From: Myxococcales bacterium
Lineage (GTDB): Bacteria; Myxococcota_A; UBA9042; JABWCM01; BTVJ01
Length of the DNA: 64,000 nucleotides
Direction: 5' to 3'
Assembly: GCA_045863395.1 (NCBI GenBank)
Contig: BTVJ01000015.1
Span: 1-64,000 of the forward strand
Below, in pieces: positions 4,699 through 15,425 of this stretch (positions are counted from its first letter, which is position 1; each line of letters starts with the position of its first letter). A program made the position numbers and the translations under genes. The notes under the pieces were generated by a model. It had not been told where the DNA came from. It ran no database searches and saw only the letters and a list, made by a program, of their open reading frames with translations.

Positions 4699-5181
4699 TC
4701 AGCGCTCCGCCTGCGCAACGGGGTGGTCACCACCGGAGAGCCTGAGCAGCACCGGACCCGCTGGATCGTCCGGGGGCACGAGGAGCGGCAGCAGGTTGTG
4801 CCACGCCGCGCGGGAGAGGCGCGCCTCGGCCCCGCCCTTGACGCGGCACGCCGCCGACTCCCCACGCAGCCGGAGGGACGCGGGGTCCAGCAGCTCGCGC
4901 GTTCCGTCCGACAGCAGCAGCTCGACCGCGGTGGGGAGCGAGGGGTCCCCGACGACCCGCAGGTTGCGCACGACGTAGGGGGTGCCCTCCACCTGCACGT
5001 AGGCCCAGTGGGACCCGATGCGGACGATGACCTCGCCGTCGGCCCGCACGGAGAGGCCGGCGTTGAGCGCCGCCACCGTGCGCTCGTGGGTGATGGCCTC
5101 ACCGCGATGGGTCCACCGGCAGTCCCCGTCCAGCCCGAGGCCGCTCCCTCGCCGCAGCAGATCGAGGATCGCGTCGTCCAA
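4699..5181 (-). CDS. DUF1285-like hypothetical protein
   Basis: WTHRGEAITHER...VQVEGTPYVV...CRVKGGAEARLSRAAW pattern. TTG start after GGAGG. Confidence 0.7.
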   Translation of the reverse strand: MDDAILDLLRRGSGLGLDGDCRWTHRGEAITHERTVAALNAGLSVRADGEVIVRIGSHWAYVQVEGTPYVVRNLRVVGDPSLPTAVELLLSDGTRELLDPASLRLRGESAACRVKGGAEARLSRAAWHNLLPLLVPPDDPAGPVLLRLSGGDHPVAQAER

Positions 5182-5193
5182 AGGTGCCTCCAA

Positions 5194-6891
5194 TCAGAGG
5201 CCGCAGCCGGCGGCCTCCGGCGCGCACACGCCCGAAAAGCTGGAGCTTGCGCAGGCCGGTGTGAACGCGGTGGCGGTGCTTCCGCAGGCCTCGATGGCGC
5301 AGGACCAGAGCGACGACACGCCAGGCACCGCCCCCCCGGACATGCCGCCGAGGCACCCGAACATGCACTGCTGCTTCGCGAGACCGAAGCCGCCGCACGC
5401 CGTGATGCACGAGGTGGTGGCGGCGCAGTCGTACAGGCTCCCGACCGGCCCGTTGCAGGTGCCCGCCACGTCGGCGCAGGCGAACCAGCTCGCGACGGCC
5501 AGGCACTCCTGGCTGTCCGCCGCGTTGTTCTCGTCGAGGTCGCACAGCCCGAAGCGGCAGTCGTTCCACAGGATGGCGTCCATGCCCCCCGACGGCGAGA
5601 GCTGGTCGAAGCACGCGTCGATGCAGGCCTGGTTGCCGCCGCAGGCGCTCAGGCACCCCCCGTTGTAGATGTCGCCGCAGGACTTCGTGCCCACGTAGAA
5701 GCAGTCCGCGTACTCCTGGAGACACCAGGTCAGGTAGCAGTCCGTGAACTGGGCGTCGGGCACCGACGCGCAGTGCTGCACGAGGCAGCTCTGCCACGCG
5801 TTCCAGTGGGCCTTGGTGTCAGGGGGCAGCGCGTTGAGGCACCCGGCGTAGCAGAGGGAGTTGTTGAAGCAGCTCTGGATGCACGGCCCCAGGTCCGCGG
5901 GACAGCTCTGGCCCACCTTGCAGCCGCAGCCCTTCTCGCCGAGGCACGTATAGACGTCGTCGCAGGAGACCACTGGCGAGCAGACCGGTTCGAGCTGGCA
6001 GTCGTGGTCGGCGCAGTCCGTCTTGCCGTCGAGATCGTTGTCCTTCCCGTCGTCGCAGTCCTCCACGCACGCGACGGTGCCCACGCAGTCGGGGTCCGCG
6101 CAGTCGGTCTTGCCGTCCAGGTCGTCGTCCACGCCGTTGATGCAGTTCTCGATGCACCCGGGCTTGCCGGCGCAGTCCGAGTCCGCGCAGTCGGTGAGCC
6201 CGTCCACGTCGTCGTCCTTGCCGTTGCCGCAGATCTCGAAGCAGCCTTGCTGCTTCACGCAGTCCGGGTCGTAACAGTCGGTGAGCCCGTCCAGATCGTC
6301 GTCCACCCCGTTGGTGCACACCTCCGGGCTGGGAGTCACATCGGCGCCCTGGGTATCCGGCGCGCCGGTGTCCGGCGCGCCGGTGTCCGGCGCGCCGGTG
6401 TCCTGCGCGCCGGTGTCCTCGCCCGCGTCCACGGCCCCGCCCGCGTCGCTCCCCGCGTCACCCTCGCCCGTCTCGGGGCCTCCAGTGTCCTGCGTGACGT
6501 CGGGCAGGCTCGTGTCGGTCCCCGCGTCCCCAGCTCCCGTGTCGGTGCCTGGGCCTCCGTCAGCCGCGTCGGGCCCTCCCGCACCGTCCGGCGCCCCCGC
6601 GTCGGGCCCGCCGCCGTCCGCACCGCCGTCCGCGAGCCCGTCAGGAGCGCCTCCATCCGACGTGTCCAGGGCCGCGGCGTCGGTTGCGACGTCCGCTGGC
6701 GTCCCGGCGTCGTCCATGCCCCCAATGTCCAGGACGAGCCCGCCCCCCCCGTCGCTGGAGCCGCCCCCCGCGACATCTCCAGCGCCCTGGGTCCCCCCGT
6801 CCGCCTGCCCTCCAGCGCCGCTGTCACAGGCGGACACCGCCAACACGACGCAAACGAGCCAGCCAGCGGTCTTGAAGTGTGCGTGCCTCAT
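5194..6891 (-). CDS. Cys-rich lipoprotein with acidic linker, four ExCxNGxDDDxDGxTDCxDxDC repeats and C-terminal Cys-rich repeats
   Basis: Lipobox VSAC, D/G/A/T-rich linker, repeats such as EICGNGKDDDVDGLTDCADSDC. Confidence 0.85.
   Translation of the reverse strand: MRHAHFKTAGWLVCVVLAVSACDSGAGGQADGGTQGAGDVAGGGSSDGGGGLVLDIGGMDDAGTPADVATDAAALDTSDGGAPDGLADGGADGGGPDAGAPDGAGGPDAADGGPGTDTGAGDAGTDTSLPDVTQDTGGPETGEGDAGSDAGGAVDAGEDTGAQDTGAPDTGAPDTGAPDTQGADVTPSPEVCTNGVDDDLDGLTDCYDPDCVKQQGCFEICGNGKDDDVDGLTDCADSDCAGKPGCIENCINGVDDDLDGKTDCADPDCVGTVACVEDCDDGKDNDLDGKTDCADHDCQLEPVCSPVVSCDDVYTCLGEKGCGCKVGQSCPADLGPCIQSCFNNSLCYAGCLNALPPDTKAHWNAWQSCLVQHCASVPDAQFTDCYLTWCLQEYADCFYVGTKSCGDIYNGGCLSACGGNQACIDACFDQLSPSGGMDAILWNDCRFGLCDLDENNAADSQECLAVASWFACADVAGTCNGPVGSLYDCAATTSCITACGGFGLAKQQCMFGCLGGMSGGAVPGVSSLWSCAIEACGSTATAFTPACASSSFSGVCAPEAAGCGL
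6352..6418. repeat. 15-bp tandem repeat (about 4 copies) encoding DTGAP
   Basis: GGTGTCCGGCGCGCC units read directly. Confidence 0.85.
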
Positions 6892-6953
6892 GCGCGCTCC
6901 CTCCCCCGAGGATGGCGCCACCATACACCCGAAGCCCCCGCCAGGCCAGGAGA

Positions 6954-7964
6954 TCAGGCGTCGACCCCGGTGTGCGGGGCAGGCAGCGTGGAGACGAGCC
7001 CCTCCCCCTGGTAGCGGTAGCTCGGGTCGCCTCGAAGGTCGGTGCGGATGCGCTCGACGATGGGCCGCGGGTCGACGAACACAGGGTAGAGCTCCGCGGG
7101 ATCATAAGCGTTTCCGCGCTCGTAGAGCCCCCCGCAGATCGACCGCAGGCGGCACTGCCCGCAGCACTCCGCGTAGAGGTGCCCCCACTCGGTCTGCCGC
7201 ACGCTGCCCTTCTCGTCGAGGAAGTGGACGATGCGCTCCTCGTCCTTGACGATCTTGCGCGTCTCCGTGGAGCAGTGCGCGTACTCGGTCATGTAGCAGA
7301 GCGGCACGCGCTCCACGCGGAAGGTGCACCCGTGGGCCTCCAGGTGCCGCATCGCCCGCAGCAGCGACACCTCGAAGTCCGCCAGCCGCGGCGTGAAGAA
7401 CTGGTTCTCGCTGGCCTTGCCCAGATCCGGGTCCAGGTTGTTCCACACGTAGTGGCGCACGAAGGGGAAGTTCTTGGTGTGGTAGCGGACGTTCTCGTCC
7501 AGGTGGTCCGCGTTGAACTTGTTGATCACCTGGTTGATGTTGCAGGCGACGCCAGCGGCGTCCAGGTTCTTGAGGGCCGCCGTCGCCTTGCGCAGCGACC
7601 CCCGCGACCCGCGCAGCCAGTCCTCGAGATCCGGTCGCACGCTGTAGATGCTGACGTGCGCGTGCTGGAGCCCCGCCTCCGCCAGCTCTCGCGCAACCTC
7701 CGGATCCTCCAGGAGCTGCCCGTTGGTGATCATGCGCACGTGCAGCGACGTGGTGCGCGCGTAGCGGATGATCTCGGGCAGAATCGGCGACAGGGTCGGC
7801 TCGCCGCCGGTCAAGATGATGCCGAAGTAGCCCCGCTCGACGAAGTCGTCGATCAGACCGCGGATGTCCTCGAAGCTGTGCACGTACGGCGTGGTCGGGT
7901 TGGAGCAGAACCCGCACGCCTGGTTGCAGTGCCGGACGACCTGGATGTAGCCGATGTTGGCCAA
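6954..7964 (-). CDS. Radical SAM protein, HxsC-like
   Basis: CNQACGFC motif, LTGGEPT, ITNG and C-terminal CGQCRLRSICGG. TTG start after GGGAGG. Confidence 0.9.
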   Translation of the reverse strand: MANIGYIQVVRHCNQACGFCSNPTTPYVHSFEDIRGLIDDFVERGYFGIILTGGEPTLSPILPEIIRYARTTSLHVRMITNGQLLEDPEVARELAEAGLQHAHVSIYSVRPDLEDWLRGSRGSLRKATAALKNLDAAGVACNINQVINKFNADHLDENVRYHTKNFPFVRHYVWNNLDPDLGKASENQFFTPRLADFEVSLLRAMRHLEAHGCTFRVERVPLCYMTEYAHCSTETRKIVKDEERIVHFLDEKGSVRQTEWGHLYAECCGQCRLRSICGGLYERGNAYDPAELYPVFVDPRPIVERIRTDLRGDPSYRYQGEGLVSTLPAPHTGVDA

Positions 7965-7983
7965 GGTCGGAGCCTCCCGGCGC

Positions 7984-9735
7984 TCAGGCGCACGCCGCCC
8001 GCGCCTCGGAGGCGAGCGGCTGGAGCGCCTTGAACCCGTGGTTGCGCAGATAGTTGATGTGCATCCCCCGGCACGTGGTGTCCAGCGCGCAGCCGCGGCA
8101 CCGCTTGCTCTTCGCGTAGTACTCGCTGACCACGAAGTGCTCTACATAGTGATCGATGTCCAGGTCTCCGGCCCGGTCGACCAGGTGACGGGGCAGCGTG
8201 TGGTGGTCCGCAGGGCGTGAGGCGCTCCCGGCGATGCACGCAGGCACGTTCTTGAGGGGGACCCCCAGGCCCGCCAGCCTGGCCAGCGTATCGGGATCCG
8301 GGTCCACCTCACGTGACTCGCTCAGGTATTCGTGGTTGCCGAGGCGCAGGGTCAGGCGCCCCTCCAGGGAGCCCACGCCGTGCTCCAGCAGCCACGCGGC
8401 CATCACCGCGTCCACCTCCGCCTCGACGGCCAGCCCCGGCGGCAGCACGGGGCCCAGCGCCTCCAGCGCCTCGACGGTCCGCACCACCAGCGTGGTGACG
8501 CGCCCGGGGTCCGCCGCCAGCGCGAGGACCTCGGCGACGGTCGGCACCTCCGCGCGCACGACCGCCCCCGGGAAGGCGTCCCCCACGTAGCCCCGCACCG
8601 CCTCCAGCGAGCCGCGCACCTCGACGCTCATCGGCCGCTGCCGCGCGAACGCCTCCTCGGCACGCGGCCCCATGGACGGGACGTCGAGGTCCACCGACAC
8701 CCGCTGGAAGCCCCCCGCCTCGTGCTTCTCGCGGAACGGGAGCATGGTCCCCCGGCACAGCCCGTTCAGGAAGCAGTGGTCGCACCGCTCCCCGAAGCAG
8801 TCGGGCTTCGTGCCGGTCTTCATGAAGCCCTCGAAGTTGTTGCGCCCCCCGTTGACCTCCGAGTGGAGCTTGTGCGGGTCCTGGATCAGGTGCTCGTACC
8901 CCTCGAGCTGGGCGACGGGCAGCCGGTTCGTCCACATGAAGACGCCGGGCTGCTTGCTGACCTCGAACGCCCGCTGCAGGTCGTCGTGGTGGGCCTCGAT
9001 GTCGAAGAAGAGCTGGTCGCGGAACTCCTCGAACCCCCGCCCGAAGGGCACGATGTGCAGCAGGTCGAACTCCCGGATCCCCATCGCCATGTAGAAGTCG
9101 ACGATGTCCCGCAGGTACCTCACGTTGAGCTTGTTGATGACCACGTCGACGTTGACGACGACCCCGCCGACGGCCTGGAGGTTGCGGATGCCCTGGTTGC
9201 CCCGCTCGAAGGCACCGGGCAGGCCGACCAGCCGGTCGTGCAACCGCGGTGTGTGCCCGTGCATGGAGAAGGTCGCCTCGTTGAGCCCGGCGAGCTTCGC
9301 CTTCCGCGCGAAGTCCGGGTAGGCGAACATCTGCCCGTTGGTCACGGTCTGGATCCAGTCGTATCCGAGTGATCGGCCGTACCGGATGAGCTTGATGAAC
9401 TCCGGGTGGACCGACGCCTCCCCGCCCGACAGGATCAGCCGCTCGCCCCCCTTGTCACGCCCCTCCTTGATGAAGGCCATCAGCTCCTGGACGGGAACGT
9501 AGGTGCCGTTCTGGTTCCAGGAGTCGAGGCAGAAGGTGCAGCGCTGGTTGCAGAGCCGCGTGACGCGGACCCACACGCGCTTGTGCTTGACCGCGTCCTC
9601 CTTGGCCGCGTCCTTCTCGATGTACATCTCGGCGCTGTCGATGAACGCGGTCTCCTCGGCCCCGGCGTCCAGGCCGCGCGCCTTGTTGGCCAGGCGCTCC
9701 AGGGTGACTACGTTCTGGGGTGAGAAGGTCGGCAT
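7984..9735 (-). CDS. Radical SAM protein, HxsC-like, with C-terminal extension and two auxiliary Cys clusters
   Basis: CNQRCTFC, LSGGEAS, TVTNG, internal CDHCFLNGLCRG and terminal CRGCALDTTCRG. Confidence 0.9.
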   Translation of the reverse strand: MPTFSPQNVVTLERLANKARGLDAGAEETAFIDSAEMYIEKDAAKEDAVKHKRVWVRVTRLCNQRCTFCLDSWNQNGTYVPVQELMAFIKEGRDKGGERLILSGGEASVHPEFIKLIRYGRSLGYDWIQTVTNGQMFAYPDFARKAKLAGLNEATFSMHGHTPRLHDRLVGLPGAFERGNQGIRNLQAVGGVVVNVDVVINKLNVRYLRDIVDFYMAMGIREFDLLHIVPFGRGFEEFRDQLFFDIEAHHDDLQRAFEVSKQPGVFMWTNRLPVAQLEGYEHLIQDPHKLHSEVNGGRNNFEGFMKTGTKPDCFGERCDHCFLNGLCRGTMLPFREKHEAGGFQRVSVDLDVPSMGPRAEEAFARQRPMSVEVRGSLEAVRGYVGDAFPGAVVRAEVPTVAEVLALAADPGRVTTLVVRTVEALEALGPVLPPGLAVEAEVDAVMAAWLLEHGVGSLEGRLTLRLGNHEYLSESREVDPDPDTLARLAGLGVPLKNVPACIAGSASRPADHHTLPRHLVDRAGDLDIDHYVEHFVVSEYYAKSKRCRGCALDTTCRGMHINYLRNHGFKALQPLASEARAACA

Positions 9736-9751
9736 CGTTCTCCGTGGCGCC

Positions 9752-10651
9752 TCAGGCGGCGCGCGCCTCGTTGATGGGGCTCAGCTCGTCGAACCCGTAG
9801 CGCCGCGCGTAGGCGGCATGGATCCCCGGACACCGGACACGGGCGGCGCACCCCTCACAGGGCGGGCCGTGGACCCGGCGGTCATCGTCCCCCGCTTCCC
9901 TCACTGGGTCGGAACCTGGATGAGCCTCGGCCAGCGCGGGGCGCAGGTCGACGAGGCCCCGCTCGTCTCCCCCGAGCACGCACGGCGGCACCCCCTTGAT
10001 GGACGCGGGCCGCCGCACCCGCCGGAGCACCCCGACCGCCTGCGCGAGGTGCGGCGCGGTCATCGCGTAGCGAGGAACGATCTGCACCAGGTCTGTGCCG
10101 GCCAGCCCGGCGGGCCGCGCGAAGGACGCGCGCCAGCCGTCAGCTCCCAGCGACACGGCGAAGGCGGCGAGCTCCTTCAGGTGACGGTGGTTGGAGCGGG
10201 TGATCACGGAGGTGACCAGGACGGGCAGCTCGTGGGCCTTGGCGCGCTGAAGCCCGCGGACCGCCTGCTCGAAGGACCCCTCCGCCCGCGTGTGCCAGTC
10301 GTGGAGCAGCGCCTCGTGGCCCTGCAGCGCGATCTGGAGCGAAGAGACGCCCGCCTCGACCAGCCGGGACACGACGCCTTTGTAGGAGAGCATGCGCCCG
10401 TTGGTCTGGACCTCGACGCGACGGAAGCCGAGGCCTCGGGCGAACGCGACCCACGCCGGCAGCTCATCGCGCAGCGAGGGCTCACCGCCCGTCAGCACGA
10501 GGACGTCGCCAACGGCCCTGGCCTGCGCGATGCGCTCCCGCACAGCGTCGTCCGCGAGATCACGGGTGCGGTCGCGCAGCGTGCCCTGCGAGCAGAAGCG
10601 GCAGCGGCTGTTACACGACCAGCCCGTGACGACGTCGACGCGTCCCGACAA
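9752..10651 (-). CDS. Radical SAM protein, HxsC-like
   Basis: CNSRCRFC, LTGGEPS, VQTNGRML, VPPCVL and C-terminal CEGCAARVRCPG. Confidence 0.9.
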   Translation of the reverse strand: MSGRVDVVTGWSCNSRCRFCSQGTLRDRTRDLADDAVRERIAQARAVGDVLVLTGGEPSLRDELPAWVAFARGLGFRRVEVQTNGRMLSYKGVVSRLVEAGVSSLQIALQGHEALLHDWHTRAEGSFEQAVRGLQRAKAHELPVLVTSVITRSNHRHLKELAAFAVSLGADGWRASFARPAGLAGTDLVQIVPRYAMTAPHLAQAVGVLRRVRRPASIKGVPPCVLGGDERGLVDLRPALAEAHPGSDPVREAGDDDRRVHGPPCEGCAARVRCPGIHAAYARRYGFDELSPINEARAA

Positions 10652-10720
10652 GGGATCCCTCTGTGTCTGCGGCCGCCGCAGCGGCTGGTTGGTTCTGGGG
10701 CTGCCTCCACCGGCCCCGAG

Positions 10721-10749
10721 AGCGTAACAGCGGGCCCCACCCGGGTCAA
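10721..10749 (-). promoter_or_regulatory. Putative sigma-70 promoter of the radical SAM operon
   Basis: Minus strand TTGACC-N17-TACGCT, about 70 bp upstream of the start at 10651. Confidence 0.5.
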
Positions 10750-10802
10750 CGCACGCCCCCGAAATCCCGAGGAATCCGGCCCTCGGGAGGGTCCCCGGCC
10801 CC

Positions 10803-10832
10803 TTGACACCCGCGGGAGCCCGACCGTAGAGT
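10803..10832 (+). promoter_or_regulatory. Putative sigma-70 promoter of hxsD
   Basis: TTGACA-N18-TAGAGT upstream of the ATG at 10886. Confidence 0.6.
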
Positions 10833-10885
10833 GGCGGCCGGTGTCGGGGAGCCCCCGGCCACGAAGAGGCACGAACGGAGGCGAG

Positions 10886-11425
10886 ATGAAGGAGCCGAAG
10901 GTGCTGTCCATCGACGCCGCGCAGGGGGTGGCTCTCCTCGCGCTGGACAAGGGCCTCTACCCGCTGGAGGTGATCTACGGCGCTGCCTACGTGCTCATCG
11001 ACAGGGCGTATGTGCTGCTCGACCGGGACGACGAGGGCCGCACCCTGGTGCGCATCGAGTGGAAGCCGGAGGAGCGGCGCCCCGACGCCTCCCCGGAGCA
11101 GGCACTGCGTGCGCTGGCGGGCGAGCTGTCCAATGAGCTGCTGAGCCAGGCGCTCCGGCGCAAGATCACCAAGCAGAACCAGCCGATCCTCGAAGCGATC
11201 ATCACCCAGGCCATGGCGGGCGCAACGGGAGCGACCTTCGGCGCGTTGGAGCAGGGCGACGACGATCTGGACTTTCTCGACGATCCGCTGGGCATCGCCG
11301 TCCCCTGGGAGGAGAAGTTCTCCAAAGACAAGAAGAAGGCCGCGGAGTCGGCGACGGACGCGACGACGGCGGGTCCGGGCCAGTCTGGGGGCTTCAAGCC
11401 CACGTCAGAGGGAGGCGCGTCGTGA
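10886..11425 (+). CDS. hxsD: His-Xaa-Ser system protein HxsD-like, with acidic C-terminal tail
   Basis: LDKGLYPLEVIYGAAYVLIDRAYVLLD...ELSNELLSQALRRKI resembles the HxsD signature. Tail LDFLDDPLGIAVPWEEK. GGAGG RBS. Confidence 0.8.
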   Translation: MKEPKVLSIDAAQGVALLALDKGLYPLEVIYGAAYVLIDRAYVLLDRDDEGRTLVRIEWKPEERRPDASPEQALRALAGELSNELLSQALRRKITKQNQPILEAIITQAMAGATGATFGALEQGDDDLDFLDDPLGIAVPWEEKFSKDKKKAAESATDATTAGPGQSGGFKPTSEGGAS

Positions 11426-11631
11426 CGCTCCGTCTGGACCGCAAGCTCTACACGAAGGCGGCGGTGACCGCGACGGCGGAGGCCTTCGCGGGGCTCGCCC
11501 GCATCCAGGTCACGGCCGACGACCGCTACCATGTCGTGGAGCTGTCGGACCCCGACCCGGACGTCGCCGACACGATCGACAGGGAGTTCGCGAACTTCGC
11601 CCTCGCGGAGACCATCGAGGGGCGGCGCTGA
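11422..11631 (+). CDS. Small HxsD-like protein
   Basis: 69 aa, LDRKLYTKAAV...AFAGLA...EFANFAL. GTGA overlap with hxsD and a GGAGG RBS. Confidence 0.75.
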   Translation: MTLRLDRKLYTKAAVTATAEAFAGLARIQVTADDRYHVVELSDPDPDVADTIDREFANFALAETIEGRR

Positions 11632-11714
11632 CCGCGGCTCCCGCCCGGGCGCGTGACACCCAGGTGGTGACGGTCACAACCACGTCACTGTCATCATTCT
11701 CGTCGTTCTCATCG

Positions 11715-11744
11715 TTGACAGGGGTAGAGCGGGGCCCGTAGACT
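11715..11744 (+). promoter_or_regulatory. Putative sigma-70 promoter of the Tat-signal gene
   Basis: TTGACA-N18-TAGACT, preceded by three 9-bp direct repeats. Confidence 0.6.
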
Positions 11745-11807
11745 TGCTGGCAACGCGGACTCGCACCACCTGTCGCAGCCAAAAAAGGGACCGTCGGAGG
11801 CCTCCAG

Positions 11808-12377
11808 ATGTCGATGAACAAGGACAATGGCGTCACTCGCCGCGGCTTCATCACCGGGCTCGCAGCAGGTACCGCGGTGATCGCCCTGGCCCGGCCAGGG
11901 GTCGCCAGCCCCGCGAGCAGCATCCCCTCCGACGAGCCCAGCCGGGCTGAGCCCCTCGGCTCCCTCCAGGACCTGTCCGCCCCGCTCCGAGACGTCCTCG
12001 CGGTCCTCACACCGGGGGCCACCGTGCTCCCTGGCTGGAGCATCGCCAACGTCGGCACCCGCACCGGAGCAGTGGCCGTGTTCCTGCGCTCCACAGAGGG
12101 CGCGGAGCTGCGGGTGGACGTGTGCCGGAGGGACGCGGACCGTCAGTCTGGCGTCGTGAGGACGGAGCACTTCGAGCTCGTCCTGATGAACCACGGCGAG
12201 GGCCAGGCGGTCACCCCCCAGGAGCACGAGCAGGCGGCGCGAGTCATCGGCGAGGCGCTGCGCCGCGTCGAGGGGCGGCTGACCGCAGCCCCGTCTGAGC
12301 TCGCGACCCACGAGCGGAGGGTCGCGCTCTTCCAGAACGCCGTCCTGTTCCACCCGGAGCCGGCGCGCCGAGCCTGA
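11808..12377 (+). CDS. Twin-arginine (Tat) signal protein of unknown function
   Basis: TRRGFITG followed by a hydrophobic stretch. GGAGG RBS. Confidence 0.8.
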   Translation: MSMNKDNGVTRRGFITGLAAGTAVIALARPGVASPASSIPSDEPSRAEPLGSLQDLSAPLRDVLAVLTPGATVLPGWSIANVGTRTGAVAVFLRSTEGAELRVDVCRRDADRQSGVVRTEHFELVLMNHGEGQAVTPQEHEQAARVIGEALRRVEGRLTAAPSELATHERRVALFQNAVLFHPEPARRA

Positions 12378-12563
12378 GCGTTGGCCCTCCCGCCACAGAA
12401 CGTACGGCGAAGCCCTCGTTCTTGACCCACTGCCCCTGCGCCAGAACCCTGTCACCCTAGGCTACCCTCAGCGGAGAGATCTGCGCCCTGGCCCTGTCCC
12501 CGCTCCCGACGATGTGATAGGGTACTGCGATCCCGCGCCTACCCACATCTGCGGAGTGTGTTC

Positions 12564-15425
12564 ATGCGTCTCTCACGGCTCCTGCTCAGCGTGCTCGTAT
12601 TCTCCTTGGGGTGCTCCGAGTCGGACGTCACGGGGGCCGGCGAGCCGGACGCGGGGGATCCCGGCCCGGTCGGCGGCCACGGCAAGCTCACCATCGACAC
12701 GAAGCTGTCCGACAACCAAGTGTACGCGGGCCAGACCGTCGACGTGACCTGCACCGTCCGGGACGGGTCCGGCGAGGCCGTAGACAAGCCCACCGGGCTG
12801 TTCATCAAGCCCGGCGAGGGGCTGACCGTCACCGACCATGCGCTGCTGACCACCAAGCCTGGCACCTGGAAGGTGGCCTGCAAGCTGCTCGACCCCCCCA
12901 TCGTCGACCTGGACATGGAGACCCTCGTCGTCGTCAAGGGCGCACCCATCAAGGTGGAGGCGAAGGTGGACCCCGCCTCCGTTGGCGCCGGAGAGCAGGC
13001 GCAGGTCACGTGCATCGTGACGGACGCGCTCGGGAACGTGCTGGACGAGCCCACGTCCGTGGTGGCAGAGGGGCTCACTGTGGACGACCACTCCATCAGC
13101 GGCACGACGCCCGGCACCTACGAGGTGCGCTGCGTGGTCGACGAGCACCCGAAGCTGGAGAACATCCCCGGGTCGCTGGTCATCGAGGCCGCCGTGCCCG
13201 CGACCATCGAGCTGTCCGTGACGCCGGTGAAGTCCATCTACGACCCGGGCAACAACGTCACGTTCTCTTGGGTGGTGAAGGACGCCTTCGGCAACGAGAT
13301 CCCCGACGCCCCAGCGACGCTGGTGGGCCCGACGGAGGGCGTCAAGCACCTCCAGGACACGAAGTACAAGCTCCTCGTGGACGGCCACCACACGTTCACG
13401 GTCACGCTGGACCCGCCTGGGCCGCCGCTGTCCGACTCGCTCACCCTCATCGTGGACGGCCTGGCGCCCGAGATCGTGATCGACTGGCCCGAGCGGGGCG
13501 CCACGATTCAAGGTGGTGCAACGGACGATGTCGTGATTCAGGGGCACATCGTCGATGCGGGCGGGGTGAAGTCCTTCTCCATCAACGGGCAGCCGGTCCC
13601 GCTGACCGAGGACGGGAGCTTCACCTTCCCGATGAGCCCCAAGTGGGGCCTGAACCTCATCGACGCCAAGGCGGTGGACATCGCGGACCACGAGTCGCGC
13701 ATCTCGCCCACCTACTACTACTCGACGGCCTTCCTCTCCTACGAGGGGGCGACGGCCGGGGACGTGAAGCTCCCCGACTCGGTGGCGCTGCTCCTGGGCC
13801 AGCCCTTCCTGGACGATGGCGACCACGACCCGGCACACCCGAACGACGTGGCGACGCTGCTGGAGATGGTGCTCTCCCTGCTGGACCTGAACAGCCTGAT
13901 CCCCCCGATCAACCTGCCCGGCTTCGGCACCACGCTGCCTGGCATCATCAACTTCTCCATCCCGGGGCCCGCGGGCACCACCATCGATCTCGCCGGGGAC
14001 CTCGGCTTCGAGGTCATCATCGGCCAGCCCCAGCTCGGCTCGTTCACTGTCTCGCTGGATTCGCGGGAGGGCGGCATCGACATGGGCCTCGGCCTCGGGA
14101 GCGAGGCAAAGCCCGCCTTCCTGTTGCCGATCACCATCGAGGTGTCGGTCCCCGTGACCATGGGCATCACCTTCGACCTGCCCTTCGGCGGCGGGCAGCA
14201 GACCATCGAGCTGGACGTGGTGGGCAAGGCGACCATCGCGACCGGGGTGCAGATCAAGCACATCGGGGTCGTCACGCGCCTGGATATCGCCTTGGCGCCC
14301 GGCGGGCAGGCGGAGGTGTCGGTCGCAGACATCGAGATCCAGCTCCAGGGGGTTGGCGTCGTGCCCATCAAGGAGCTGGTCATCGACTTCGGTGACCTGC
14401 AGCTCATCCCGTTCCTGCCGCCCATCCCGCTGAAGTTCGACCTGCTGCAGTTCATCCCCGGCATCACGGACCTGTTCGACTTCCTGGTGCTCGACCCGCT
14501 CATCCAGGCCATCGAGCCGCAGATCTCGGGGCTCATCGAGCCTCTGATCGACCAGGCCATCGGCGCCGTCATCGAGCCGCTGTTCGCTGCGCTCAACCTG
14601 GAGACGACGCTGCCGCTGCCGAGCCTGACGGGAGGCCCCGACATGGAGCTGGGCATGGCCATCGGGCTGTCGTCCATCCAGTTCACGGACGACGGCGGCA
14701 CCATCGGCCTCGGCTGGGGGTGGGCGACTCCCAAGGGCGTCGACCGCCAGCCCCTCGGGATGCCGCTGCGCGATGGCTGCCTCAACGGCACGGGCGACGG
14801 GCCCTTCGCCTACTCCTGGGAGCGCTCCGTGGGCGCCGCCGGCCGCACGGACTCGCTCAACGAGCTGCTGTTCTCGCTGTGGTGGAGCGGCATGCTCAAC
14901 AACACCCTGGATCTGAGCGGCCTCGGCGGCGGTGGTGGGGGCGGCTTCAGCCTGGACGGGGTCGTGATCACGCCCACCATGCTGCTCCCGCCGCTGGCCA
15001 ACGACTGCAGCAAGGGCCCGAACGAGGTGCAGGTCGGCGATATGTACCTGGACCTGGACGTGAACCTGGGCGGCTTCGCCATCAAGGCCAAGATCATCAT
15101 GGATCTCGCGGTCCAGGTGAACTTCGTCGGCGGCCCCGACGGCATCTCGCTCCAGATCGGGCAGTTCACGCTGCTCGACATCGAGGTGCTGGACGTGGGT
15201 GGGGGCCTCGGGGCGTTGTTCGACGTGGAGGACCTGCTGCTCGGCACCCTGGTCCCCATGATCAAGGACAACGTGGAGGGGCTGACGCTCGGCCCCATCC
15301 CGCTGCCCGGGATCCCGCTCGACGGCATCCTGCCGGGCGTCCCACCGGGGACCGAGTTCCTGATCGGCGACTTCAAGGTGGGCAAGCAGCCCGGCTACAC
15401 GATCATCGCAGGGGACGCCCAGTAG
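12564..15425 (+). CDS. Large lipoprotein with Ig-like repeats and a hydrophobic C-terminal region (possibly BPI/TULIP-like)
   Basis: Lipobox SLGC, VTCxVxD(A/G)xG Ig-like units, and a long L/I/P/G-rich C-terminal half. Confidence 0.8.
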   Translation: MRLSRLLLSVLVFSLGCSESDVTGAGEPDAGDPGPVGGHGKLTIDTKLSDNQVYAGQTVDVTCTVRDGSGEAVDKPTGLFIKPGEGLTVTDHALLTTKPGTWKVACKLLDPPIVDLDMETLVVVKGAPIKVEAKVDPASVGAGEQAQVTCIVTDALGNVLDEPTSVVAEGLTVDDHSISGTTPGTYEVRCVVDEHPKLENIPGSLVIEAAVPATIELSVTPVKSIYDPGNNVTFSWVVKDAFGNEIPDAPATLVGPTEGVKHLQDTKYKLLVDGHHTFTVTLDPPGPPLSDSLTLIVDGLAPEIVIDWPERGATIQGGATDDVVIQGHIVDAGGVKSFSINGQPVPLTEDGSFTFPMSPKWGLNLIDAKAVDIADHESRISPTYYYSTAFLSYEGATAGDVKLPDSVALLLGQPFLDDGDHDPAHPNDVATLLEMVLSLLDLNSLIPPINLPGFGTTLPGIINFSIPGPAGTTIDLAGDLGFEVIIGQPQLGSFTVSLDSREGGIDMGLGLGSEAKPAFLLPITIEVSVPVTMGITFDLPFGGGQQTIELDVVGKATIATGVQIKHIGVVTRLDIALAPGGQAEVSVADIEIQLQGVGVVPIKELVIDFGDLQLIPFLPPIPLKFDLLQFIPGITDLFDFLVLDPLIQAIEPQISGLIEPLIDQAIGAVIEPLFAALNLETTLPLPSLTGGPDMELGMAIGLSSIQFTDDGGTIGLGWGWATPKGVDRQPLGMPLRDGCLNGTGDGPFAYSWERSVGAAGRTDSLNELLFSLWWSGMLNNTLDLSGLGGGGGGGFSLDGVVITPTMLLPPLANDCSKGPNEVQVGDMYLDLDVNLGGFAIKAKIIMDLAVQVNFVGGPDGISLQIGQFTLLDIEVLDVGGGLGALFDVEDLLLGTLVPMIKDNVEGLTLGPIPLPGIPLDGILPGVPPGTEFLIGDFKVGKQPGYTIIAGDAQ

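Follow-up and report, generated by a model that had tools for sequence, protein, structure and literature searches.

The stretch of DNA studied here, called the window, comprises the first 64,000 nucleotides of contig BTVJ01000015.1 (C15) of a Myxococcales bacterium (assembly GCA_045863395.1; 8.77 Mb, 97% complete, 186 contigs). It carries a locus with genes for three HxsC-like radical S-adenosylmethionine (SAM) enzymes, here R1 to R3, for HxsD, for an HxsD-like protein and for a protein with a twin-arginine translocation (Tat) signal. We are highly confident that this locus is a detached piece of a split HxsA4 pathway, the precursor of which is encoded on another contig (C12). Our explanation as a whole, to which we assign a probability of about 60%, goes further: the enzymes of the window and those dispersed over the genome would act in trans on this precursor, and the Tat protein would then export the modified peptide. 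The features concerned are:

6954-7964, minus strand: R1, HxsC-like radical SAM enzyme, 336 amino acids; PF04055; TIGR03977 96.9 bits (cut-off 267.9)
7984-9735, minus strand: R2, HxsC-like radical SAM enzyme, 583 amino acids; order R3-R2-R1 kept in relatives
9752-10651, minus strand: R3, HxsC-like radical SAM enzyme, 299 amino acids; NF038332 143.8 bits (cut-off 500)
10721-10749, minus strand: weak sigma-70-like promoter of the enzyme arm, seen by eye, under the scan threshold
10803-10832, plus strand: sigma-70-like promoter 5' of hxsD, from the scan, 10 of 12 matches
10886-11425, plus strand: hxsD, long form, 179 amino acids; TIGR03976 58.7 bits (cut-off 50)
11422-11631, plus strand: hxsD-like, 69 amino acids; NF038315 67 bits (cut-off 41)
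11715-11744, plus strand: sigma-70-like promoter 5' of the Tat gene, from the scan, 10 of 12 matches
11808-12377, plus strand: Tat-signal protein, 189 amino acids, candidate export carrier; TIGR01409 18.7 bits (cut-off 16.7)
C12, 8401-8709: HxsA4 precursor; NF038313 119.4 bits (cut-off 55)

Parts of the pathway on other contigs

A preliminary description, made from the letters of the window, had seen neither a His-Xaa-Ser (HxS) repeat precursor nor a clear HxsB, and had left the choice between a split pathway for a peptide made by the ribosome and modified after its translation (RiPP) and an undescribed variant with a different substrate. Both absences hold for the window, which contains no tandem HxS of two or more triplets in six frames and no HxsB match among its proteins. 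The rest of the genome speaks for the first option. In a six-frame scan of all 186 contigs, the single run of at least four HxS triplets was found in a 102-amino-acid protein on C12, the HxsA4 precursor, which ends in HCS-HAS-(HGS)13-W. The HxsB model (TIGR03978, cut-off 370) was exceeded twice, on C121 (529 bits) and C89 (464 bits), and the HxsC4 model (NF038332, cut-off 500) once, on C9 (536 bits). A precursor and HxsB elsewhere in the genome are what the preliminary description itself had named as refuting its reading, so that an alternative substrate is not needed; its second option, with the Tat protein or the lipoprotein as substrate, is not supported.

Around these genes lie more enzymes. 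The HxsA4 gene is surrounded by five further radical SAM genes; the HxsC4 gene on C9 is flanked by two more HxsC-like genes, with a methyltransferase-like gene nearby; and clustering of neighbours revealed an enzyme-methyltransferase fusion on C3 and a hydroxylase on C66. Thirteen radical SAM-family genes outside the window have counterparts in the Hxs clusters of relatives. One of them is an HxsB-like gene without CxxxCxxC (234 of 370 bits) that follows HxsB in the stretch 7760-10746 of C89. Such a gene stands directly after hxsD-like in 5 of 36 loci of relatives; its product may be a scaffold or a pseudo-enzyme partner. This aKG-HExxH (alpha-ketoglutarate) hydroxylase stands alone in the genome (C66:17765-18985; TIGR04267 88.3 bits, cut-off 40) and has orthologues in 13 Hxs loci, mostly adjoining R1 or R2, and it likely belongs to the pathway as well. 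No genome match exceeded the cut-off for canonical HxsA with its signal peptide and peptidoglycan-binding domain (TIGR03979; the HxsA4 precursor reaches 23.1 bits, cut-off 121.65), and HxsC (TIGR03977) likewise stayed below its cut-off genome-wide, with best scores of 100.8-111 bits. The parts do not form one D-B-C-A operon; they are spread over C15, C12, C9, C89, C121 and other contigs.

For comparison we used a phylum sample of 301 genomes and two sets of loci, 80 centred on R1 and 36 centred on hxsD-like. R1 turned up in 104 of these genomes and hxsD-like likewise in 104, with 102 carrying both, 4 only one of the two and 195 neither. An R1 orthologue is present in 90 of the 107 genomes of the class, and among the best 80 of 261 R1 matches most records are titled Myxococcota or its subgroups. 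Three records (L180, L186, L246) are titled Klebsiella or Enterobacteriaceae and carry R1 at 63-66% identity; in the first two it lies in Myxococcota-type clusters, and their titles are possibly mislabels. As hxsD-like occurs in 51 of 58 well-assembled genomes of the class and in 53 of 243 outside it, the system is near-core in the class and patchy by family elsewhere. In 41 close genomes, the source included, hxsD-like was found in 35, HxsA4 over its cut-off in 32 and HxsB in 38. Beyond the class, 44 of the 45 genomes selected also gave a match to the HxsA4 precursor.

The preliminary description had proposed a comparison of synteny across Myxococcota, and this brings the dispersed genes together: in several relatives their orthologues stand side by side. 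All 36 hxsD-like-centred loci contain hxsD, 23 contain hxsB, 14 the precursor and 11 R1. R3 is present in 29 of the 80 R1-centred loci, and hxsA, hxsB or an hxsD gene in 31. R3-R2-R1 is a recurrent gene order, frequently linked to hxsD, hxsD-like and hxsB. The fullest example (L215) holds within about 20 kb R1, R3, the Tat gene, the precursor, HxsB, both HxsD genes, four more enzymes and the HExxH hydroxylase; L205, L225, L243 and L113 are similarly compact. On a single contig of Polyangium jinanense (L188) a distance of about 630 kb separates R1 from hxsD and hxsA4. Thus the dispersal of the genes is not only an effect of assembly. The scattered genes behave as one system.

The layout of the window locus was confirmed: three packed radical SAM genes, their motifs verified, diverge from hxsD, hxsD-like and the Tat gene. 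Sixteen bases separate R3 from R2, 19 bases R2 from R1 and 234 bases R3 from the divergent hxsD, the stop of which is overlapped by the start of hxsD-like through GTGA. Of the sigma-70 promoters claimed for both arms, those of the plus arm were borne out by a scan that found two sites against 0.2 expected, both on the plus strand. The scan gave no site on the minus arm, for which a weaker one was seen by eye at 10749-10721 (TTGACC-17-TACGCT, extended -10 TG). The Tat gene is covered by RNA-library contigs in all 4 runs compared, and hxsD partly in 3 of the 4; as such contigs reveal neither strand, start nor level, and the comparison had no silent control, we do not claim expression from them.

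R1, R2 and R3 are only 27-31% identical to one another. Each has a CxxxCxxC and a CxxCx5CxG motif, the second being doubled in R2, and the canonical HxsC of an Aminobacter plasmid has the same two motifs. R2 contains an inserted region and has a 40% identical paralogue on C9. In an enzyme tree R1, R2 and R3 fall into three orthologue groups, one for each, apart from HxsC4 (SH-like approximate likelihood ratio test, SH-aLRT, 95, 98 and 90). The tree left out canonical HxsC, so that it does not place R1 to R3 relative to HxsC; both it and the R1 tree discussed below were built by a quick method. R1 is 62-71% identical across distant Myxococcota, and of the enzymes tested it accompanies the HxsD pair most constantly. 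We infer that, of all candidates, it is the one best suited to act as HxsC. A complex prediction for R1 and HxsD scored 0.00 in two runs and was counted neither for nor against.

Both small proteins had been assigned to HxsD families, and in the search with hidden Markov models (HMMs) both indeed exceed their cut-offs. Their genes are single copies, the sole ones found in the genome. HxsD-like matches HxsD at 96.5% in a profile comparison. HxsD continues past the TIGR03976 domain in a near-invariant acidic tail (FLDDPLGIAVPWEEK), which is predicted to be loosely ordered. A fold search with the HxsD model returned only common alpha/beta arrangements (best Z 7.6).

The Tat-signal protein and the precursor leaders

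The Tat protein had been described as an orphan. In fact it belongs to the system as a regular component, as its co-occurrence and its linkage to hxsD indicate: the gene was found in 74 of the 301 genomes, and in 72 of these together with R1 or hxsD-like, i. e. in 72 of 106 genomes with either gene and in 2 of 195 with neither. Outside the class, no more than 1.5 kb separates it from hxsD-like in 27 of 39 genomes, and often it adjoins hxsD. The family forms 782 clusters at 50% identity. Twin arginines are kept in 135 of 139 aligned members, none of which contains tandem HxS. The signal scores over the TIGR01409 cut-off, and tatC is present on C42.

The model of the protein has a mean confidence (pLDDT) of 83.8. 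Profile-profile comparison shows its core to be homologous with the N-terminal domain found in a family of radical SAM enzymes, one member of which lies on C3 beside the enzyme-methyltransferase fusion: the match reaches 97.1%, and 25 column shuffles gave at most 2.2%. A weaker match (70%) was obtained with the C-terminal domain of an enzyme on C23; the two enzyme-borne domains compared directly with each other gave 0.1%. With a single-sequence HMM of the core, a search of the genome found the C3 domain at E=1.2 only; the homology rests on the profile-profile comparison. The top structural neighbour in the Atlas is a 383-residue Myxococcota radical SAM cluster (template modelling score, TM, 0.61), and Atlas feature matches all stayed below 0.9. 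Nothing clear came from a fold search of the model against 48,161 chains (best Z 5.0) or from Foldseek (none at E<=0.001). That one domain occurs on enzymes and also in an exported protein would be consistent with a role in binding peptides. In a genome in which the Tat gene was not found (G011), a membrane protein encoded just upstream of hxsD (L095:10483-12675) has an N-terminus weakly like the Tat core (E 0.011).

The reading of the Tat protein as a carrier comes from the leaders of the precursors. The precursor of the source genome has neither a hydrophobic segment nor a signal peptide. Leaders were scored by their best 12-residue mean hydrophobicity; in the class sample, those shorter than 45 residues or with unknown residues were dropped. 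There, all 16 scorable leaders from Tat-negative genomes scored 1.37-1.87 and all 18 from Tat-positive genomes -0.21 to 1.31. The Tat-negative leaders have a TRxQAA-like motif, a hydrophobic run and a small-residue site. A threshold of 1.34 was fixed from this sample and then applied to other classes (15 Tat-negative genomes, one of them without a precursor match, and 30 of 41 Tat-positive genomes, one of them unscorable). It was exceeded by 17 of 18 Tat-negative and 2 of 29 Tat-positive leaders. Over both sets, a signal-like leader was thus seen in 33 of 34 Tat-negative and 2 of 47 Tat-positive cases, and the lone Tat-negative leader under the threshold is a fragment at a contig edge. In one genome in which the Tat gene was not found (G109), the precursor leader carries a full twin-arginine motif. 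A prepilin-type peptidase was also sought: one PF01478 gene turned up, on C134, a contig on which no Hxs gene was found. From the anticorrelation between Tat gene and leader type we consider it somewhat more probable than not that the Tat protein is a carrier of the peptide; nothing indicates that it is the substrate.

Proposed pathway and alternatives

The pathway would run as follows. HxsD and HxsD-like would serve as adaptors, by analogy with the E. coli system. R1 would take HxsC's place as core partner of HxsB, and R2, R3 and others would add further changes; HxsB and about ten further enzymes from other contigs would join the window enzymes in trans. The 15 His-x-Ser units would be oxidatively cross-linked and methylated, comparable to the +8 Da (+C, -4H) of E. 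coli HxsA. His-to-Ser cross-links with methylation would be the most likely chemistry, by analogy with three-residue cyclophanes. The signal-less precursor would then cross the inner membrane as a Tat hitchhiker, bound to the Tat protein. Its product could be a standing component of the envelope, with the E. coli phage-entry barrier as nearest precedent; this is the weakest step, and we put it forward with some doubt.

Several observations weigh against this explanation. The description of R1 to R3 as HxsC-like stands for the motifs and fails at the cut-offs: the three enzymes reach 79-97 bits with the HxsC model and 46, 100 and 144 bits with the HxsC4 model. In 40 of the 80 R1-centred loci, many on short contigs, there is no other Hxs gene. 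Where the Tat gene was called absent, the call was made from only 11 candidates scored per genome. The radical SAM family that carries the Tat-like domain occurs in 17 of the 301 genomes, two of which have neither R1 nor hxsD-like. In the R1 tree of 52 rows the Tat label changes four times, at least three times on strong branches; two of these changes are the two R1 copies of G239, a genome in 770 contigs in which the Tat gene is possibly unassembled. Because two of the four changes come from one fragmented genome and kin are not independent, the pattern amounts to about 2-3 independent events. In three Tat-positive families (f28, f35, f55) the leader still contains a brief QSLLLL run. Finally, the DNA-binding model for E. 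coli rests on a peptidoglycan-binding domain and on basic residues, both of which are absent from HxsA4; with Gly for Arg and no wall anchor, it does not allow a direct transfer of that model.

The alternative that survives best, though it is unlikely, keeps the split pathway and has the Tat protein exported alone, as a receptor, anchor or immunity protein, with the peptide leaving otherwise. The promoter-like site of its own before the Tat gene would suit this, as would weak fold neighbours, MucB and RseB (Z 5.0, root-mean-square deviation (rmsd) 2.9, 80 residues aligned; Z 4.5, rmsd 2.9, 81 aligned). Such a protein could also replace the peptidoglycan-binding domain absent from HxsA4. Yet it leaves unexplained that signal-like leaders are nearly confined to genomes in which no Tat gene was found, and that cytoplasmic radical SAM enzymes carry this domain as a fusion.

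It is improbable that the product stays cytoplasmic or is cut small, as a cofactor or metal ligand, with the Tat protein as its periplasmic user or binder. The near-core and dispersed distribution resembles that of housekeeping pathways, the His-Gly-Ser units are monotonous and variable in number, and R1 is well conserved over long distances. However, the precursors of Tat-negative lineages carry a signal-like segment, in G109 with the full twin-arginine motif, and these leaders indicate that the peptide is exported.

Modification of another substrate, be it the Tat protein, a 955-residue lipoprotein encoded downstream or the acidic tail of HxsD, is the least probable. In its favour, the HxsD tail is strikingly conserved, some of more than a dozen enzymes may have other targets, and 4 of 36 hxsD-centred loci have the lipoprotein gene at a distance of up to about 8 kb from hxsD. 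Against it, the HxsA4 precursor exists here and in nearly all genomes selected from other classes, no HxS triplet occurs in the Tat protein or HxsD, the Tat gene was not found in 32 of 104 R1-positive genomes, and the lipoprotein, with one isolated HES, is absent from 80 of 80 R1 loci, its four linked cases all belonging to one family (f8).

Returning to HxsA4 as the substrate and the Tat protein as carrier, a wider picture can be drawn, if only tentatively. For a single His-Gly-Ser repeat peptide, a near-core pathway would employ some 16 radical SAM genes together with methyltransferase domains and an HExxH hydroxylase, and a peptide-recognition domain of the pathway's enzymes would have become a free-standing Tat carrier that replaces the signal peptide and has an undescribed binding fold, giving the hypermodified peptide an export route of its own. 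A near-core, scattered and mostly single-copy system is unusual for a defence island.

Neighbouring genes and comparison with known systems

The 955-residue lipoprotein (12558-15425 in the window) has immunoglobulin-like repeats; its homologues near hxsD in four f8 genomes are 31-36% identical, perhaps through old synteny. On the other side, 29 bases downstream of R1 and on the same strand, a 576-residue lipoprotein-like gene (5194-6924) encodes four acidic double-disulfide repeats (NF033662). A 164-residue gene (4699-5193) with a weak DUF2944 match has homologues near hxsD in L083, L085, L091, L099 and L118. Elsewhere in the genome, C62:38043-40823 and C145:843-3623 hold an apparently identical cassette of small peptide, kinase-like, radical SAM and peptidase-like genes, each following a very large surface protein, which reflects duplication or assembly overlap. 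At C56:27687-31680 (L252) the gene of a protein with repeated VGPCL adjoins that of a B12-type radical SAM enzyme; the pair is a candidate for a modification system distinct from this one.

Among His-Xaa-Ser systems, the only one characterised to our knowledge is the anti-phage HXS of Enterobacteria and other Pseudomonadota, a phage barrier made up of four genes. The present system shares with it the HxsD and HxsB families, HxsC-like enzymes with the same cysteine motifs, a His-x-Ser substrate and, if our reading is right, export. In contrast to HXS, it has no HxsC or canonical HxsA over the cut-off, its precursor has no signal peptide or peptidoglycan-binding domain and has neutral Gly instead of Arg, and it comprises an additional HxsD-like gene, the Tat protein and about 16 radical SAM genes instead of 2, scattered rather than in a four-gene operon. 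According to Li et al. (2026, PMC13128918), HXS systems have the four proteins in >99.8% and one gene order in 99.6% of cases. In E. coli, the same paper reports, all four genes are required, processing of HxsA depends on HxsB, HxsC and HxsD alike, HxsD is pulled down by HxsC, and a +8 Da (+C, -4H) change of HxsA maps to SHRSS; the product acts in the periplasm, and the authors term its export non-canonical. "Myxococc" does not occur in the text of that paper, the supplements of which might list Myxococcota HxsA proteins. Against PADLOC 2023 the genome gave only generic viperin radical SAM matches.

The locus is not a new system, as its anchor families HxsA4, HxsC4 and HxsD-like are already in NCBIfam, and NF038313, NF038332 and NF038315 are all exceeded in this genome. 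In contrast to this subtype, R1 to R3 and the Tat family are unnamed and match no curated family beyond generic domains. Our literature searches found no paper naming HxsA4 or HxsC4 and none on this branch. For the chemistry, triceptides offer a plausible model of His-to-Ser links, with repeated aromatic-x-aliphatic triplets and radical SAM enzymes; one of these, WprB, is described in PMC12957482 as acting on repeated WPR motifs. Here the enzymes are far more numerous, and the E. coli change of +8 Da is not a plain -2 Da link. For the export, the Tat hitchhikers PaoABC and HybOC provide a likeness, in which, according to PMC4273604, a signal-less partner is exported bound to a signal-bearing protein. 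These are enzyme subunits, whereas the putative cargo here would be a modified repeat peptide and its carrier a small free-standing domain.

What this branch brings to the study of His-Xaa-Ser peptides is a simpler substrate that consists purely of repeats, along with numerous radical SAM enzymes still uncharacterised, a named export candidate and, among the relatives, cultured hosts such as Polyangium and Plesiocystis. If the Tat protein is indeed the carrier, it would be a Tat hitchhiker system dedicated to a modified peptide, and its core would be a new peptide-binding domain.

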